From: Naegleria gruberi
Taxonomy: Eukaryota
Strand: one strand, 5' to 3'
DNA length: 64,000 nucleotides
NCBI GenBank assembly: GCA_000004985.1
Contig: GG738891.1
The notes under the pieces are model-generated. The model was given only the letters and a program-made list of their open reading frames with translations. It was not told the origin of the DNA and did not search any database. How positions within the stretch are numbered: the first letter of the stretch is position 1; every line of letters starts with the position of its first letter. Shown in pieces: positions 89 through 61,479 of the stretch. The position numbers and the translations under genes are program-made.

Positions 89-796
89 TTAAAAGTGTTT
101 TTTTGATGTTTTATTGGAAACTTGATGAAATACCCAAAGTGGAAAGTAAAATTGCATTGTTGATTGTTCATCGTAGGCAAATGAAGCTCTCCTTCTGAGA
201 ACACTTCTTCTCTTTACTGTTTTCTTAGTTTTGTGAATAGCAGTTGGTTGGTTAGGTGTCGAATTGTCATTCAGTGAGGTGGTTCTAGTTTCAGATATCG
301 AATTGGAATCAACCACCTTACTTATTGAAAAAGAGGTCTGTACATTCTCTTCAATGATCTGTTGGTGCTTTCTTTCATCAAGGTGATGATTTGAATTTTC
401 TTCTGGCATTTCTCTCTCATTTGTCATGATTATTGAAATATCTTGATAATAACTTCTTATCAAATCTTCGTAATCTAAAGATAACATAAGCTGTGTATCT
501 TCATACTTGTCAATGATTGGTTCCCTGCTCACTGGATCCAACAGTGAAGATCTTGTGGTATTGGTGGACAATGGTGGAGAAAAGGAAGGAGATGGAAGGG
601 AAGAGCTAGCTGATGAAGTTCTTGTTGGGGCCAATTCATCACGAGAATAGTATTGACTGTTAAAAGAACAAGATAACATTTGGTCGCTATTGACATTTCT
701 TGGCAAATTTCTCTTATTAGTTTCCTCTCGAGACGAATCAATGACGGAAACAAGAAATTTCAGCATCAGGTCTTCAACAGAAGTAATTTTCGACAT
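89..796 (-). CDS. Hypothetical Ser/Thr-rich protein, about 235 aa. It has an RRRASF basic motif near the C-terminus.
   Basis: Long ORF with a real ATG at 796 in an A-rich context. Low-complexity S/T/N-rich composition. No recognisable domain. Confidence 0.35.
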   Translation of the reverse strand: MSKITSVEDLMLKFLVSVIDSSREETNKRNLPRNVNSDQMLSCSFNSQYYSRDELAPTRTSSASSSLPSPSFSPPLSTNTTRSSLLDPVSREPIIDKYEDTQLMLSLDYEDLIRSYYQDISIIMTNEREMPEENSNHHLDERKHQQIIEENVQTSFSISKVVDSNSISETRTTSLNDNSTPNQPTAIHKTKKTVKRRSVLRRRASFAYDEQSTMQFYFPLWVFHQVSNKTSKKHF

Positions 797-6350: not shown

Positions 6351-6793
6351 TTTTTTTTGAAATTAGAAACTTAAGTTTATGTAGTTTACAATGAAGAATG
6401 GTCCCTGCCATGAAAAATTGGATAGTAATTGCAATTGTTAGTTTTTGGAGTCATCTTAATTTTATTTTAACAAAGAAACAAAAAGACTACAGCACCACAG
6501 GTTCCCAAGTTGTCTCCAACCTCAGTACTGATGTGGCTCGACGATGCTTAACTTCTCAAATCGGACGGGATGAGGTGCATTCATCGTGATATGGCCGTAG
6601 CCATTCAATTACTAGATTTCTGAGTTATAAATCAAAGTTGCAATCAATTTATTTTCGCAACTAAGCTTACCATGCAATTACAAAATAAAGTTGATAGACA
6701 ATTGGTGAAACAGACCTGCCTTTGAAGGATGTAAATCTTTATTGATCATTCCATCAGGTCTCAAAATAATCCTACCCTGGAAAATTAAAAATA

Positions 6794-6866
6794 TGCCGAC
6801 ACCAGGGATCGAACCAGGGACCTTAAGATCTTCAGTCTTACGCTCTCCCAACTGAGCTATGTCGGC
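6794..6866 (-). tRNA. tRNA-Phe (anticodon GAA).
   Basis: The reverse complement reads GCCGACATAGCTCAGTTGGGAGAGCGTAAGACTGAAGATCTTAAGGTCCCTGGTTCGATCCCTGGTGTCGGCA. This is a canonical cloverleaf with a 7-bp acceptor stem, a GTTCGATCC T-arm and a CTGAAGA anticodon loop. Confidence 0.9.
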
Positions 6867-15657: not shown

Positions 15658-15728
15658 TCGGGTGTGGTATAGTGGTAGCATTCCAGACTGTCACTCTGGC
15701 GACCCGGGTTCAATTCCCGGCACTCGAG
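15658..15728 (+). tRNA. tRNA-Asp (anticodon GUC).
   Basis: TCGGGTGTGGTATAGTGGTAGCATTCCAGACTGTCACTCTGGCGACCCGGGTTCAATTCCCGGCACTCGAG. The acceptor stem TCGGGTG/CACTCGA includes a G-T wobble. The anticodon loop is CTGTCAC. The sequence is very similar to metazoan and fungal tRNA-Asp. Confidence 0.85.
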
Positions 15729-24060: not shown

Positions 24061-24180
24061 AAAAGGCGCCAAACAAATGAGTTCCATCGAGCAAATCCAC
24101 GAAAAATCATCAAATCTCAATATTTATTTTTAGAAGCAACATTTGAGTCATTATTGCTTTCTCTGAAAAGTGCGCCAAAA
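24061..24180. promoter_or_regulatory. Two E2F-like sites in a divergent promoter region: AAAAGGCGCCAAAC (24061-24074) and AAAGTGCGCCAAAA (24167-24180).
   Basis: GC-rich 8-mers (TTTGGCGC on one or both strands) match the E2F/DP consensus TTTSSCGC. They stand out in about 75% AT intergenic DNA. They lie between the F-box gene start (23482, minus strand) and the 24420 ORF. Confidence 0.4.
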
Positions 24181-24419
24181 AAACCTTCCAATTTGAACCT
24201 CAATCTTCATCCCTTCAAATATGACACGTTCTCTTCACCACATCATAATAAGCAGCACTTGCTGAGTTTTATTAATAACCAAGGAATAAAACTACTAGTA
24301 GCTGTTGGGCAAGGGCATTTGAATAAAACGGTTAGCAAGGGAGTGGTGACTCGAACAATTTTCCATAATAAAAAAAGATAACAACTTGAATCAACATTGA
24401 TTGTAATATAATAATAGAT

Positions 24420-24692
24420 ATGGCTCAAAGATCTTCATTGCCACTTCATAGTCAAGAAGAGGAACAAGCTTCCTTAACTGCTAATGCTGCTCCTCATCAT
24501 CATCCTCATCATAGAATTAAACAACAGGATGAGTCACATTTTGTGATATTAGAGAATGGATCTTCTGTTCCATTGTCAGATGTGATGGATAAGGAGGAAA
24601 GAGAAAATCCGAGTGATTTGTTGTTGAGAATGATGAAGAAGAGAGCTGTTGCATCACTACTCGATTCACGAAGGAATACTTTGAAGCAATAA
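24420..24692 (+). CDS. Small hypothetical protein, 90 aa.
   Basis: ORF with ATG at 24420. Acidic and His-rich. No homology recognised. Confidence 0.25.
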   Translation: MAQRSSLPLHSQEEEQASLTANAAPHHHPHHRIKQQDESHFVILENGSSVPLSDVMDKEERENPSDLLLRMMKKRAVASLLDSRRNTLKQ

Positions 24693-27826: not shown

Positions 27827-29613
27827 TTAAAGAACAGTGACAGTCTTGGCCAAATTTCTTGGTTTGTCTGGATCGTGACCACGGAGAAGAGCCAATTCGT
27901 AAGCAACCAATTGGAGTGGAATATTGGCCAACAAGGCACTGAAAATACCATTAGATGGAACATCAATAACATAGTCAGCTTCATGGGATGGAATCTTATC
28001 TGGAATATCAGTAATAGCTACAGTATAAGCACCTCTTGATTTGATTTCAGCAGCAGCTGTCATATTCATCTTAAAGTACTTGTCATCAAGAATGAAAACA
28101 AAAATAACAGTTCCTGGTTCAATAAGGGCGAATGGACCATGTTTCAAGGCACCAGATGAGTAACCTTCGGCGTGAGTGTAAGTAACTTCCTTAACCTTCA
28201 AAGATCCTTCATAAGCAACAGCTTCACCATAACCCTTACCCAACATGAAAAGAGTATTGCCCTTCATGTTATAAATATGTCTGGCAATATGTCTACACTT
28301 CTCTCTAACTCTGCTCAAAACCATACCTGCACTAGTTGGCAAACGATGGAGGTATTGAATAATGGCTTGACGATGTTGAAGTTGGAATTTTGGTGATCTG
28401 TTTTGAGCAAACCACAAACCAATCAATGCCAAAACAGTAACTTGGCAAGAGAATGCCTTGGTTGAGGCAACAGCAGTTTCACGACCAGCATTAATATACA
28501 CACCACACTTTGTAGTTCTAGCAATAGTTGAACCGACACGATTAACGCAGGAGAAGCTTGGAACGCTCAATTGTTCTGCAATATAAATACATCTCAAAAC
28601 ATCAGCTGTTTCACCACTTTGTGATAAAACCAAAAGGCCAGAATTTTCAGGGCAAAAATGTGATTCCTCAAGTTCAGCACCATCAATAACTTGGATAGTC
28701 TTGAAGCATCTCAAATCTCTGAAAATTTGAGCACCATAGAGACCAGCATAGTAACTAGTACCACAACCAGCAATAACCAAATGTTCAATACCAGATAACC
28801 ATTCCTTATTATCATCCAAACCACCCAATTTAACATGACTATCATCACTAATTCTACCACCAAAATTCAAAGATCTTGAAATTGATTCAGGTTGCTCCAA
28901 AATTTCACGAATAGTCCAGTGAGCATGTGGATGAGGAGTCTTTTCAATCTTTTCTTCTTCAACAACAATCTTTCTTTCATAAGGAAGAGTAACACCTTCA
29001 GAGGTAATGACAGCAATTTCATTATTTTCCAAACTGATCATTTCTCTAGTGTACAATCCGAATGCAGAACTTTCGGAAGCAACAAACATCTTACCTTGTG
29101 AAACACCGACCAAGAGAGGAGAACCATTTCTGGCTACAACCAAACGATCTGGTTCAACTGTAGACATAATAACCAAACCCCAAGTACCTTCCAAATGTTT
29201 AGTAGTCTTGAGAACGGCCTTTTCAACAACATCTTGCTTCATTCCATCCTTTAACATTTGGTCCAAATAGACACCAATCATTTGAACAATAACTTCAGTA
29301 TCTGTTTCACTCTTGAATTTAATTCCGTGCTTTTCTATCAATTCCTTTTTCAATTCACCAGAATTTTCAATGACACCATTGTGAACAAGAATCACACGAC
29401 CAGATTGATCCATGTGAGGGTGAGCATTCATATCAGTTTTAGCTCCGTGAGTAGCCCATCTAGTGTGAGCAATACCAATACTATCATTTCCGTGTGTATG
29501 TAAAGTTTCTCTCAATCTCTTAAGAGCATCACTTGTTGTTTGAGAACTGGCATATTTAGTTGTGTGGAAGCAAGGTTCTCCCTTATCGTTTTGTCTTAAG
29601 NGTTGCAATACCT
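27827..29613 (-). CDS. GFA1: Glutamine--fructose-6-phosphate aminotransferase (GFA1/GFAT). The 5' end is truncated by an assembly gap.
   Basis: Diagnostic blocks are present: GIAHTRWATHG, the SIS-domain blocks CGTSYYAG and LSQSGETADV, and the C-terminal block LAKTVTVL. The N-terminal Cys1 glutaminase region lies in the N-run. The expressed-gene codon bias is strong (ggt, gct, aag, ttc). Confidence 0.85.
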
Positions 29614-29663
29614 NNNNNNNNNNNNNNNNNNNNNNNNNNNNNNNNNNNNNNNNNNNNNNNNNN
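29614..29663. other. Assembly gap. A run of N is present, plus an isolated N at 29601.
   Basis: Ambiguous bases in the sequence. Both flanking genes lose their 5' ends here, so the true gap is larger than 50 nt. Confidence 0.95.
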
Positions 29664-34728: not shown

Positions 34729-35672
34729 TTTTTTTATAGTTTGGCAGATGACATGTTAAAAAGGAACGCGATTATGGCAACCAAAATAATCAGAATGGGA
34801 AGGTTCATCATATTGTAGTTAATTTTTCGTGATATTATATTGTACTTGTTTACAATAATACTATTTAATGTTATTGTAAACTATTGAATTGTGCGCGGGA
34901 GATGACCTTTCAATGGAAAGAATCTTATTTTGATTGATTAGAACTTCAATAGTTTTGTAGATCGTACACGTGTCTTGAAGTGAGGAGGTAGGTGTAGAAA
35001 CATTCAAATTGATTAGAAAGATATTCAGCTCAAAAAAAGACTTTGAGTTTCTGAATTGGCTATTTTTGAAAATTAATGAAAAACTGGTCATGTAGCTAAG
35101 GAGGAAAGCTTTAATCTTCAATGGAGCCCTGTTCATCAAGTAATCAAGTCATTTACATACAATGAAACTTCACTTTCTGATAGAAATTCGAAACTAGCTC
35201 AGTGATTGACTCTAGTTGTGTAGTCGTTATATCTCCATCAGTTCCATCAGTTATGGAACTTTTCAAAGCTGTCATTAATAGTACATCTCTTGCAACATGA
35301 ATTACAATGGTTCACTAAAAAGTTGAAATCATTTTACAATGACTATCTTTTGGCTTTTTTCTTTGAACAGTTCAACAATTTACAAACTTTTTCACAACTA
35401 CCAACACAGGTTGCCACATCAATTGATTCGGAATTCCAATTATTATTAATTTCACTACTTTCCAACTAACATTTCGCAATAGCAATAGGGCTAATTACCT
35501 GCGAGCTGTATTAACAAACACATCGTAGAATCGTACTTGATAGAGATTGTCCTCACCACATCGACTCTCACTTGACCACCAGATGAATTTGAATGATGAA
35601 ATGAGCATTGCTGCCTTGCACTTAATATCCATTATCGATAGTTGAAAGTAGTTGAAACGCTGTTGCTTATTC

Positions 35673-35802
35673 TTCGCGCACTTGGAGCACTTGCGGTATA
35701 GCATCTAAGTGCGCCACTGCTTTCTGCTCAAGAGAGAATCTCCTAGTGCTGCAGCAAGGACGATGTTCGGCAATTTTTTTCCAAACTTAAGTGCGCCAAA
35801 GT
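35673..35802. promoter_or_regulatory. Cluster of three GCGC-core E2F-like motifs upstream of the ABCB gene. They are TTCGCGCAC at 35673-35681, TAAGTGCGCCAC at 35707-35718 and TTAAGTGCGCCAAAG at 35788-35802.
   Basis: The same AAGTGCGCC(A) word is seen at 24167. The cluster lies 120-250 bp upstream of the ATG at 35919. A further GC-rich word TGTGCGCGGGAG sits at about 34885 near the divergent Ras-like gene. Confidence 0.35.
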
Positions 35803-35918
35803 CTTTCTCGAAAATAGATTCAAACAGAAAAAAAAAACAACGCCACATTTGTGTTGATATTATCTCATCTATATAATTGCTACTAGTTATTAGATAACAC
35901 CAAGAATAGAGAGAGAAA

Positions 35919-38059
35919 ATGGCTAGTGAAGTGAATATGTTGAGTGGCACATCGGTCGATTTGAATGATGAAAAGCCTTCGGATCACAAAGTACACGTAG
36001 AACCAGCACCACCACAGGCACAATCCCGAAATCCTTTCAAAAGACTTAAACAACGAAAAGAGAAGGCTAATTTGAAACATAATAGTGAAGAAATACCAGA
36101 TCCTAGGGACCCTAAAATTGGTTTTAAAGACCAAATGGTTCTATTCAAAATGTTTGGAGCAGCAAATTGGTTTTTAATCTTTTTGGGTAGTATTGGTGCT
36201 ATGGGGTAAGTAGTTTATAATGATATGATGATTCTAATGTATTTAGTGCTGGTGTTATTCCATTGACTTTCCAATTTGTTTTGGGAGATTTATTGAATTC
36301 TTTGGCTACTGCTTTTGCAGATCCTAATGCTTTGAGAGATAGTGTTAATACAATTGCTGCTAAATTTGCAGGTATTGCATTGGGTGCTTTGATTGCGAAT
36401 TTCATGATGCAATTCTTTTTGAACTGGGCTTCCGAACGTATTGCTGTTGCTTTAAGAGAAGGATATTTCAATGCTCTTACAGCTCAAGAAATGGCCTTTT
36501 TTGATATTAAGAAAGTTGGTACTCTTACTGTAGCACTCAGTGAGGATGTTGCCAAAATTCAAGATACTTATACTTTAAAGTTTGCCACATTTTTACAACA
36601 AATGACACAATCCGTAGTTGGTATTGTTCTTGCCTTTGTCAGTAGTTGGCAAATGAGTTTAGTCATGATTTCAACTTCACCATTGATGGTTGTGTTTGTT
36701 GGTGGTTTGTCACAAATGATTAAGTGGTTGACCAAAAAAACAAACGATGCCAATGAACACTCTGCTGCCATTGCTACAGAAATTATTTCTTCAATGAGAA
36801 CTGTTAGAAGTATGGCTGGTGAAATTAAAGAACAAAATAGATTTAAGGAAGATTTGAAGAAGGTTGGATTATTCGGTTTTTGGAAAGCAATGTTCCAAGG
36901 TTTAACATTTGGTTCAATTACCTTCATTCTTTGGGGTACTGTTGCTTTGGCATTTTGGGTAAGTAGTAGTATGCATTTATTTAATGATAACTGTTTATTA
37001 TTAGTATGGTGGTGGTTTGACTGTTGATAAAACTATCACTCTTGGTGATATGTTTAAGGTATTCGGTCTTATGCTTATGGGTGTTCTCGGTCTCTCCCAA
37101 GCAGGTACCTTCTTCCCAGATTTGAGTAAGGCAAGAATGAGTCAAGTTACTCTTTTGAAAGTTATTAGAAGAAGTCCAGAAATTCCATTCAAGGGTGGAA
37201 AGACTTTGGAAAATATTTCTGGTAATATTTCTATTAGAAATGTCGATTTTATCTATCCTTCTCGTCCAAATATTACTGTTTTGAAGAACTTCTCCCTTGA
37301 AATTACACCAGGTCAATCCGTAGCTCTTGTTGGTCCTTCAGGTTCTGGTAAATCAACCATTGTTGGTCTTGTTGAAAGATTTTACAATGCAAACTCTGGT
37401 CAAATCTACATTGATGGTGTTGATATTACTGAACTCGATCCAATGTGGCTTCACAGAAAGATTGGTATTGTTACTCAAGAACCAGTGCGTAAGTATCTTT
37501 TGTTTTTATGCAATTAACAATTTGGAAAATAGTTTTTGCTTGTAGTATTAGAGATAACATTGCCTATGCTGTTGGTGCCGAAAATGTTACACAAGAACAA
37601 ATTGAAGATGCTGCTAAAGCTGCCAACTGTCACAATTTCATTGTTGATCTCCCAGAAGGTTATAACACAATGTTAGGTGAAAAGGGTGTTTCATTATCAG
37701 GTGGTCAAAAGCAAAGAATTGCTATTGCTCGTGCCTTGTTGCAAAATCCATCTGTTCTTTTATTGGATGAAGCTACATCTGCATTGGATACTGAATCAGA
37801 AGCTCTCGTTCAAGCTGCTTTGGACCATTTAATGAAAGGACGTACTTCAATTTGTATTGCCCACAGACTTTCAACAGTTAAGAACTCTGACACCATTTGT
37901 GTTTTGGCTAAGGGTGTTTTGGTTGAAAAGGGTAAACATGAAGAATTGTTACAAATTGAAAATGGTGTTTACAAAAAGTTAGCTGAAAAGCAAATGATGT
38001 TTGGTAAATCAGAGAGTAAGATTGATTTGGAAGCAGTTATGGATATTATTGAAGAGTAA
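35919..38059 (+). CDS. ABC transporter, ABCB-type half-transporter (TMD-NBD), of about 670 aa. Exons are 35919..36205, 36247..36958, 37005..37488 and 37533..38059.
   Basis: Walker A reads GPSGSGKST. The Q-loop joins across the intron as [17 protein letters not shown]. The ABC signature is [14 protein letters not shown]. Walker B is [11 protein letters not shown]. The H-loop reads IAHRLST. The introns are 41, 46 and 44 nt and each restores conserved ABCB sequence. Confidence 0.8.
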
Positions 38060-41682: not shown

Positions 41683-42530
41683 GGGGACCAGTGGGAATCG
41701 AACCCACGGCCTCTCGCACCCAAAGCGAGAATCATACCACTAATTTTTATGAAAGGGATTTGTGAAGAAGGGATCTGTGAGGAAGGGATCCGTTACAAAA
41801 GGGATTCATTGAGAATGTGTTAGTTACTTTCGAATATTTAATTGAAATTTGATCTATATTAAAAAAAATTGCGGAAGGGGTAGTCTCTTTTTTGAAATTA
41901 ATAAAAATATACAATTTTGAAAATTAAAAATCAAGTTTTTTTATTGTTATTTGATGTTTGATTATTTTCTGTAAATTGATTAATTTCACATTTTCTATTA
42001 TGACAATAATGTGAATAATTAACACTTTTTGATGGTTTGTAATTTTGATTCATTTTCTTTTTTAAAATTTAATCTCATTCTAATTTTTAAAAATGTAATT
42101 GTTCATATTATTAAAATGTTATTTTTCTATTTACAATAAATTATTCTATCTCTCTTGAATATTTTTAATAATTGTAAATTTTCTAAAAAAAGGAAATAGA
42201 TAATATTCAATTAAATCCCTTCTAATTTTAAATTTTTTTTTGAGAAAGGGATTTGTGAGGAAGGGATTCATTGCAAAAGGGATCCGTTCTGAAAGGGATT
42301 CATTGAAAAATGGATTCATTATGGATGTGATAGTTTCAAATTTTAATTAATAATATAAAATTAACACAATATTTATTCTATTTATATACATTTCTTTTTT
42401 TGGTAATGGATTTCATTGCAAAAGGGATCCGTTAAAGAAGGGATTCATTACAGAAGGGATCTGTTACAAAAGGGATTCATTGTAAACGTGTTTCATTGAG
42501 AAAGTGTTTCTACCACTAGACCATGGTCCC
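41683..42530 (-). pseudogene. tRNA-Pro (UGG) gene interrupted in the D-arm by a 768-bp insertion. The 5' part is at 42511-42530. The 3' part is at 41683-41742.
   Basis: The 5' part reads GGGACCATGGTCTAGTGGTA. The 3' part reads TAGTGGTATGATTCTCGCTTTGGGTGCGAGAGGCCGTGGGTTCGATTCCCACTGGTCCCC. Joined, they give a canonical 72-nt tRNA-Pro that is very similar to animal tRNA-Pro. The 8-nt TAGTGGTA is present at both junctions as a target-site duplication. Confidence 0.75.
41743..42510 (-). mobile_element. Non-autonomous insertion of about 768 bp inside the tRNA-Pro gene. It is flanked by an 8-bp TSD (TACCACTA on the + strand).
   Basis: There are no terminal inverted repeats. In tRNA orientation the 3' end is A-rich (CATAAAAAT) and abuts the TSD, which is SINE or retroposon-like. 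There is no ORF. Inside are three arrays of direct 15-16-bp repeats with consensus AAGGGATYCRTTR (41751-41830, 42247-42335, 42404-42500). These are separated by very AT-rich spacer. Confidence 0.5.
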
Positions 42531-43835: not shown

Positions 43836-44624
43836 TCAAACACTAACTTCCTTAATATTTGAATCAATATTTCTCAATCTTACAACACCAGAAACACAAC
43901 AAACAGTACAACAAATAACTCCAATGCATGCAAATATAGAAAATATGATCAAGAATGGAAGAAAGTAACGACCATGTGAATTGGGGATGAAATTATATCC
44001 AGTTGTGAAGAAGGAAACATAAATAAATATAAATTCCCATACGAAAACCAACATTCCCAAACTTAGAAAAACAACATGCAACAATGAAAATCTTGCAGTT
44101 TTGGTTGAATTTTGTTTGGTGGATAAAACTCCAAAAACACCACTCAAAATCAACAAGATTGCATTCAATGCCAACAATGGGAATTTCACAAAACTGACAG
44201 CAGGTGCATTGTGTGGACTTCCATTCGGATAAGTTGATGATGAATAATAAATTGCTCCAGCAATTAAATCTGCAAGAAGAAACATGGTAATAATTGCAGT
44301 TCCAATGAATAAAAGAATGGAGCCAATTGCAATGACTTTGGTTGTCTTGGGATTTTCATCATTTGCATTGTAAGCATGTTGAGGTGGTGAGGAGGAAACA
44401 ATATTCGAATCAATATCCGAATGAATAAGTGATTCTTGTTGATAGAGAAGAGGAGCAGAACTCTTCTCATATGGTTGTTGTGGTTGTTGTTGTTGATAAC
44501 TAACAGTATTACCTTGAAGATGTGGATACATTTTTTTTTTGACTTGATTGACAAGATTTGCTTTTCGTGCAGTTGAATTTATTTCACCTTCTTTATAAAG
44601 AATTAAAAAACGTTCTAAACACAT
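43836..44624 (-). CDS. Four-transmembrane membrane protein with a Gln-rich N-terminus. Function unknown.
   Basis: There are four hydrophobic about-21-aa segments. The last contains CCTVCCVSG. Two possible ATG starts exist, at 44624 and at a downstream MYPHLQ after an A9 run. Confidence 0.4.
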   Translation of the reverse strand: MCLERFLILYKEGEINSTARKANLVNQVKKKMYPHLQGNTVSYQQQQPQQPYEKSSAPLLYQQESLIHSDIDSNIVSSSPPQHAYNANDENPKTTKVIAIGSILLFIGTAIITMFLLADLIAGAIYYSSSTYPNGSPHNAPAVSFVKFPLLALNAILLILSGVFGVLSTKQNSTKTARFSLLHVVFLSLGMLVFVWEFIFIYVSFFTTGYNFIPNSHGRYFLPFLIIFSIFACIGVICCTVCCVSGVVRLRNIDSNIKEVSV

Positions 44625-61077: not shown

Positions 61078-61479
61078 TTTTTATTCTTATTTTTAGATGA
61101 CAAACAGCCTCAATAGCAAACCTAAAAAAAACCGTAAATTCGCTTGATTGCTTGCGATTTTGATCATCATAACCTTCATGAAAAAATATATTAGAAAGTA
61201 AATATGGGAAATGAGAACACTGGAAGTGAAAAAAGCAATAAGGCAATTTTAAATAATAATAATAAATAATATTTAATATTAATGAACAAGTTTTCCCTCC
61301 ATCAAAAAAATGCCAGCAAAGAAAGTGAAGAGTAAAGACTCTACTACAACAACACAGCAACAACAGAGACATCCAAAACTAAGAAGAAGTCATCATCATC
61401 GAGTAGTAGTGCACCGAAAAAGTCTTCATCTTCGGGTAGTAGTGCTGCTACACCAAGTACTCCAACAATAGCATCGAAT

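Follow-up and report, generated by a model that had tools for sequence, protein, structure and literature searches.

What controls the ABC transporter gene of Naegleria gruberi in front of which a series of conspicuous GC-rich words is crowded into AT-rich intergenic DNA? N. gruberi is a heterolobosean amoeboflagellate, and the words stand in a 64-kb stretch of its genome that was analysed as a whole (the window). A first-pass annotation had read them as E2F sites in the promoter of an ABCB half-transporter, with the same word recurring at a second, unrelated promoter. Our analysis of word statistics and related loci points to a different emphasis. A cluster of the rare word AAGTGCGC is probably a real gene-control element, because two related species also carry it in front of this gene. 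The feature is of an ordinary kind: a candidate cluster of transcription-factor sites, recognised from sequence statistics and three-species conservation.

A rare word clustered upstream of an ABC transporter gene

The gene downstream of the cluster was correctly taken for an ABCB half-transporter. Its four exons (35919-36205, 36247-36958, 37005-37488 and 37533-38059) are separated by introns of 41, 46 and 44 nt with the form GTAAGT..TAG, and the spliced product, a TMD-NBD protein of 669 aa, is exactly identical to EFC40591.1, annotated as 'abc transporter'. The protein is of the MDR type. Among solved structures the ABCB4 and ABCB1 (P-glycoprotein) halves are nearest to it; ABCB10 and CmABCB1, the half-transporter of a red alga, come next. 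The neighbour on the 5′ side encodes a Ras-like GTPase on the opposite strand, with its ATG near 34729, and the two genes share 1.19 kb of intergenic DNA. The motif cluster belongs to the ABC side of this divergent region, where six copies, four of them strong and two weak, are arranged in both orientations 70-250 nt 5′ of a TATA-like element that is likely to be the core promoter (Table 1). Just 5′ of the cluster there are also a TATCGATA palindrome (35633-35640), with the letters of the insect DRE, and a tandem pair of TAGTTGAAA (35639-35657).

Table 1. Coordinates of the motif copies, the ABC transporter gene and other features (window coordinates unless a locus is named)
Feature	Position	Strand	Remarks
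ABCB (MDR/P-glycoprotein-type) half-transporter gene	35919-38059	+	Product EFC40591.1/XP_002673335.1
TATA-like element TATATAA	35870-35876	+	43-49 nt 5′ of ATG; likely core promoter
AAGTGCGCGAAG (+ strand CTTCGCGCACTT)	35672-35683	-	7/8 match to E2F consensus
AAGTGCTCCAAG	35681-35692	-	Tandem with the 35672 copy, 9-nt offset; GCGC core broken
AAGTGCGCCACT	35707-35718	+	AAGTGCGCC core kept, A-run absent; no E2F consensus match
AAGTGCGCCAAA	35789-35800	+	Reverse complement holds TTTGGCGC, exact E2F consensus; 119-130 nt 5′ of ATG
TTAAGTGC(AAGG)	35618-35625	-	Degenerate copy
TAGTGCTG	35745-35752	+	Degenerate copy; similar to AAGTGCTGC at 24252-24260(-)
AAGTGCGCCAAA	24168-24179	+	Second intergenic region; 12-mer identical to 35789-35800
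AAAGGCGCCAAA	24062-24073	+	E2F-consensus word (TTTGGCGC on - strand), AAGTG part absent; distant relative
GCACTT	24255-24260	-	Weak extra copy, second region; AAGTGC on - strand, context AAGTGCTGC
GTGCGCG	34891-34897	+	Sole other GTGCGC of the window; same 1.19-kb divergent intergenic region
AGTGGACGAA	1032-1041	-	
AGTGGACGAA	1700-1709	+	
AGTGGACGAA	38909-38918	+	
AGTGGACGAA	41190-41199	-	
AGTGGACGAA	44676-44685	-	
5S rRNA gene, dispersed	6484-6602	-	Adjoins tRNA-Phe(GAA)
tRNA-Phe(GAA)	6794-6866	-	
tRNA-Asp(GTC)	15658-15728	+	
ATTTTGA(A/T)T-like words	L003 9540-10000; L004 9880-10000; L006 4090-4216		

The GC-rich words described by the first-pass annotation are present where it placed them, and the cluster that they form is real; its list was incomplete, and further copies lie at 35681-35692, 35618-35625 and 35745-35752. 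Intergenic AT content, given there as about 75%, measures 66-69%, and the genome here is 33% GC. All counts for N. gruberi refer to the 64-kb window. AAGTGCGC occurs four times in it against 0.15 expected, a number that none of 100 shuffles equalled; three of these copies lie 120-250 nt 5′ of the EFC40591.1 ATG and the remaining one lies in the second intergenic region. The longer word AAGTGCGCCA is found exactly on the + strand at 24168, 35707 and 35789, and with one mismatch on the - strand at 35674 (AAGTGCGCGA, the TTCGCGC of the first-pass annotation) and 35683 (AAGTGCTCCA). These five occurrences with at most one mismatch compare with 0.77 in shuffles, none of 100 reaching five. Half of the ten GCGC tetranucleotides in 64 kb fall inside the two flagged regions, and every GTGCGC copy of the window is intergenic, including the one at 34891, about 160 nt 5′ of the ATG of the Ras-like GTPase gene (near 34729, - strand). 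The hexamer AAGTGC/GCACTT is packed most tightly, with five copies inside 177 bp (35618-35794; Poisson probability 3e-9, about 1e-6 after window scanning).

All 8- to 10-mers were also scanned, without bias, against a third-order background, and AAGTGCGC, AAGTGCGCC and AAGTGCGCCA ranked among the most over-represented words of the window that are not microsatellites. After correction for multiple words the single-word p-values are marginal (6.6e-6 for the 8-mer among 18,288 words; 8e-7 for the 10-mer among 50,446), so the case is carried by clustering and by conservation across species. Over-representation together with local clustering exceeds what composition predicts, as would be expected of a functional cis-regulatory motif.

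Alignment of the five N. gruberi copies shows AAGT in all of them and AA at positions 10-11 in four, which suggests a recognised word of about 11-12 nt (AAGTGCGCSAAR), longer than an E2F core. AAGTGCG is its best-conserved part, and RGTGCG is invariant across all copies in three species.

Recurrence of the word between 24061 and 24180 was likewise borne out, by an exact 12-mer, AAGTGCGCCAAA, 11.6 kb away from its counterpart in an unrelated region whose flanks have no similarity to it. What lies downstream of this second region is an orphan ORF of 90 aa that the annotation lacks; it starts at 24420, with the copies at 24062-24179 standing 240-350 nt 5′ of it. The same copies are 580-700 nt 5′ of the ATG of an F-box/LRR gene (23482, - strand), the only clear neighbouring gene and one encoded on the other strand. 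The ORF (24420-24692) has no exact sequence match in the annotation, and its sole relative among 1.84 billion representatives is a near-identical 89-aa copy with one His codon fewer; it may be an unannotated orphan gene or no gene at all. AP-1/Gcn4-like TGASTCA sites beside the second-region copies were considered and set aside, the word not being enriched (15 vs 15.3).

The window contains several other features of possible interest. AGTGGACGAA is present in five exact copies against 0.06 expected and is possibly another promoter motif, distinct from AAGTGCGC; the intergenic region 797-1803, a divergent one, has two copies in inverted orientation, and a further copy is found 54 nt 5′ of an ATG at 44624 (- strand). 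A link between it and AAGTGCGCSAA was rejected: the two are found only as exact, separate forms and are treated as different motifs. GCACTACTA occurs five times against 0.23 expected, and two of the copies, at 61404 and 61437 (-), 33 nt apart, share the divergent promoter of a CFA20-domain gene (ATG 61077, -) and a TFIID-18kDa-like gene (61480, +). An intergenic block of repeated units at 41780-42480 carries AATGAATCCC (five copies) and AACGGATCCCT (three copies), and an assembly gap (N run at 29601 and 29614-29663) separates a GFAT-like gene from an isocitrate/isopropylmalate dehydrogenase-like gene.

The word recurs in orthologous promoters and is absent from paralogous ones

A search with the full ABC protein recovered four paralogues from N. 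gruberi itself; other relatives came from N. fowleri, N. lovaniensis, Willaertia magna and metagenome contigs. In a neighbour-joining tree the window gene, a Logan contig, N. fowleri FDP41_013276 and an ENA gene of an uncultured relative form one orthologue clade, and the remaining loci are paralogues. We compared the window promoter with those of the orthologues in N. fowleri (locus L003) and the uncultured relative (L005), and with those of four paralogues (L004, L006, L007 and L008).

The rarest hexamer common to the three orthologous 500-bp promoters is GTGCGC/GCGCAC, with three, two and two copies in N. gruberi, L003 and L005, respectively, and AGTGCG/CGCACT ranks third. In 13 of 2000 dinucleotide-preserving shuffles (p ~0.0065), each of the three promoters had two or more copies of some CpG-containing hexamer; the test is a partial control, all three promoters being locally CpG-rich, which favours common CpG words. 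The N. fowleri count of two derives from a single palindrome, GTGCGCAC / GGTGCGCACC.

Conservation is closest between N. gruberi and the uncultured relative, which share an identical AAGTGCGCGAAG (377-388(-) in L005). It lies at -117 from the ATG in L005, with AGGTGCGCCGAG at -204, and the window copies stand at similar distances, -130, -212 and -245. N. fowleri has TAGTGCGAC, GGTGCGCACC and GAGTGCGGG between -300 and -385, and here the core alone is kept (GTGCGC/AGTGCG), not the 12-mer. Away from the ABC promoter GTGCGC is scarce, with one copy in the 22 kb of L003 and none in the 6.7 kb of L005. The orthologous promoters are otherwise unalignable and the core is kept, the pattern of a phylogenetic footprint.

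None of the four paralogue promoters contains GTGCGC, although those of L004 and L006 have CpG-rich patches; the L006 promoter holds one CGCACTT. The L008 paralogue (N. fowleri VFQX01000061.1, 1-15925), an ABCB half-transporter gene whose promoter has no AAGTGCGC motif, adjoins a pair of cytochrome P450 genes, and about 8 kb 5′ of it a protein is encoded that has a weak fungal-type Zn-cluster match; the locus resembles a detoxification neighbourhood. ATTTTGA(A/T)T-like words recur less than about 120 nt from the ATG in several Naegleria ABCB promoters, and TTTGAA and ATTCAA each occur at least twice in the three orthologous promoters, but chance alone would produce such sharing of AT-rich words (the null mean is 0.94 shared hexamers).

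Candidate factors and alternative explanations

With moderate confidence, and reasoning from sequence patterns, we propose that the copies form a conserved homotypic site cluster for a sequence-specific factor controlling the MDR-type ABC transporter. The layout recalls that of known drug-efflux genes. Yeast PDR5 carries PDRE sites for Pdr1/Pdr3, and Candida CDR1/2 carry a DRE for Tac1; like these clusters, that of N. gruberi repeats one rare GC-rich word several times, on either strand, 100-300 nt 5′ of an MDR-type ABC gene, and the word is kept in Naegleria orthologues and absent from paralogues. The analogy is one of layout alone, since the word differs from the PDRE (TCCGCGGA) and the CGG half-sites of zinc-cluster proteins are absent here. 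There is also a likeness to the NRF-1/EWG half-site GCGCA(C/T), to which the reverse complement GCGCAC(TT) is similar, and L005 has GCGCAC, GCGCAA and GCGCAG at 9- and 14-nt spacing, reminiscent of NRF-1 half-sites; the palindromic NRF-1 site GCGCATGCGC, in contrast, is absent.

The main rival to this proposal is the E2F reading, live but secondary, which we consider unlikely although by some way the best of the alternatives. It would make the copies true E2F/DP (or DEL) sites, through which Rb and E2F control both the ABC transporter and the second locus; the AAGT flank would then be a Naegleria-specific heterodimer preference or an adjacent partner site. E2F/DP sites conform to TTTSSCGC, and SELEX yields the palindromic TTTGGCGCCAAA. 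The 3′ half of most N. gruberi copies, GCGCSAAR, fits E2F-type motifs; a GCGC core followed by an A-run is seen in the three copies with exact TTTGGCGC and in the one with CTTCGCGC, all 5′ of genes. Exact TTTGGCGC is also over-represented (three vs 0.24 expected, one of 100 shuffles reaching three) and confined to the two flagged regions, where the word at 24062-24073 is E2F-type and has no AAGTG part, and CTTCGCGC, a 7/8 match, is conserved between the window and L005.

The trans-acting machinery is present as well. The first-pass annotation had made its reading depend on E2F/DP homologues, and N. gruberi encodes E2F, DP, DEL (E2F7/8-like) and Rb, whose sequences (NgruE2F, NgruDP, NgruDEL and NgruRB) are given in the supplement of Medina et al. 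2016 (PMC4862756). The recognition helix of NgruE2F is identical to that of human E2F4 in structure 1CF7, so TTTGGCGC sites are predicted to be bindable; the DNA-binding domain as a whole is about 75% identical to 1CF7 chain A, and NgruDP has the sequence RRRVYDALNVL.

What weighs against E2F is that its consensus and the conserved part of the word do not coincide. The wider class TTTSSCGC is not significantly enriched in the window (three vs 0.94; seven of 100 shuffles reach three). Its exact matches (24066, 24172 and 35793) are all TTTGGCGC and intergenic; the site at 35673 scores 7/8, and the others score 6/8 or have a broken core. Thus AAGTGCGCCACT matches at only 6/8 positions and AAGTGCTCCAAG has lost the GCGC core, and both keep AAGTGC, part of an AAGT/RGTG extension that is superfluous for E2F; the cross-species invariant, RGTGCG, lies outside what E2F/DP needs. 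In N. fowleri the orthologue has the core without the E2F consensus: TTTSSCGC is absent from the 22-kb locus, with 5/8 at best at the GTGCGC sites. L005 has no exact TTTSSCGC and one 7/8 match, and the E2F consensus is not the conserved part of the orthologous promoters.

The genes concerned are not those expected either. The two regions adjoin an MDR-type ABC transporter gene, an F-box/LRR gene and an orphan ORF, none of which is a gene of DNA replication or the cell cycle, and no canonical E2F target was found among the genes of the window. E2F promoters do not usually have such a layout, with four to six sites grouped in both orientations at a distance 5′ of the core promoter. The upstream region of an ATAD2-like gene of N. 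fowleri (ATAD2 is an E2F target in humans) has no E2F consensus and was uninformative. Of the original E2F proposal, then, the machinery, the recognition helix and the three TTTGGCGC words in two regions hold up; the conserved RGTGCG part and the lack of TTTSSCGC in N. fowleri speak against it, and the suggestion that the flanking genes are cell-cycle or DNA-damage targets found no support. Its corollary that the organism is not a dikaryon yeast was right, as seven of ten long ORFs have exact matches among annotated N. gruberi proteins (EFC40657.1 and EFC40651.1, for example), all encoded on one 339,217-bp scaffold.

It is less likely still, and in our view improbable, that the words have no specific factor behind them: they would have arisen incidentally, within a small patch of normal CpG content where an active promoter lies in an otherwise CpG-poor genome, and would have been multiplied by short local duplication. 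Observed/expected CpG is 0.43 for the whole window and 0.92-0.98 in the two flagged patches, and the densest CpG of the window, at about 35480-35850, coincides with the cluster (10 CpG in 200 bp, the mean being 2.35; o/e 0.96). Duplication would account for the 11-nt direct repeat TAAGTGCGCCA, formed by the 35707 copy with 35788-35798 at a distance of 82 nt, and for the tandem pair 9 nt apart, and the marginal corrected p-values of single words are compatible with this explanation. It does not readily explain why the core, and in one case an identical 12-mer, recurs in orthologous promoters that cannot otherwise be aligned, at the shuffle probability given above, why an exact 12-mer stands 11.6 kb away between dissimilar flanks, or why the CpG-rich patches of the L004 and L006 paralogue promoters are without the core.

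Published methylomes bear on the same point. N. gruberi has 0.28% 5mC with no CpG preference (PMC12344493), and with almost no CpG-specific methylation a protected-island mechanism is not obvious; a CpG island shielded from methylation is accordingly an unlikely description of the patch. CpG depletion of the window as a whole, to an o/e of 0.43, exists despite this low and unbiased methylation.

Very improbable is a third possibility, that the copies are metal-response-element-like sites (TGCRCNC, bound by MTF-1) driving a metal-inducible ABC transporter. The letters GTGCGC are common to some animal MREs, AAGTGCGC itself occurring in one from mouse metallothionein; TGCGCAC in the N. fowleri palindrome fits TGCRCNC, and ABCB half-transporters of other lineages handle metal conjugates. 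No N. gruberi or L005 copy fits the consensus, however, because position 7 is A or G, and the core TGCRCNC is absent from all flagged N. gruberi copies. The consensus is moreover depleted in the window (three vs 14.9), with none of the three matches in the flagged regions; the transporter is MDR/P-gp-like rather than HMT1/ABCB6-like, and MTF-1 is a metazoan protein. We reject the MRE reading on these grounds.

Two further candidates can be dismissed briefly: a structured RNA or ncRNA gene (no Rfam match at E<=1, and a fold z-score of -0.63 against shuffles, which together with the occurrence of copies in both orientations indicate DNA sites rather than an RNA element), and the yeast readings suggested by 33% GC (Candida Crz1, Rpn4, Rim101, MSE), the organism being N. 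gruberi.

Implications for gene control in Naegleria

Returning to the conserved homotypic cluster as the preferred explanation, we envisage that one sequence-specific transcription factor of Naegleria would bind it, with a consensus of about AAGTGCGCSAAR and a core of RGTGCG, and that the cluster would most likely serve the ABCB half-transporter gene as an upstream element, either activating or inducible. Given the strong copy at 24168, the second region (24062-24260) may belong to the same regulon. Because GCGCSAA, the 3′ half of the word, overlaps the E2F consensus, E2F/DP could occupy some copies too, although the E2F half is not the one that is conserved. That the gene would respond to xenobiotics or stress is a guess from the type of transporter.

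Our search of the literature found no description of a promoter motif for Naegleria, and the word itself turned up there only in primers and in sequences with no connection to it. As a tentative suggestion, and one we hold with less confidence than the existence of the site cluster, AAGTGCGCSAAR may be the first gene-specific cis-regulatory element to be defined in a heterolobosean. Its factor would be either lineage-specific or E2F/DP with an extended specificity, TTYSGCGCACTT, and the control that it exerts would predate the split between N. gruberi and N. fowleri.

If the conserved element is real, work on inducible control and drug efflux in the genus Naegleria, with its pathogen N. fowleri, could start from it; standing in front of a P-glycoprotein-like transporter gene, it would also be a usable regulatory part for emerging genetic tools. 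Should E2F/DP be what binds, a transporter gene of a deep-branching eukaryote would be controlled by a cell-cycle factor of ancient origin. If the reading of AAGTGCGCSAAR as a gene-specific element is true, it would provide a handle on the regulation of drug and xenobiotic efflux in the genus of the brain-eating amoeba.
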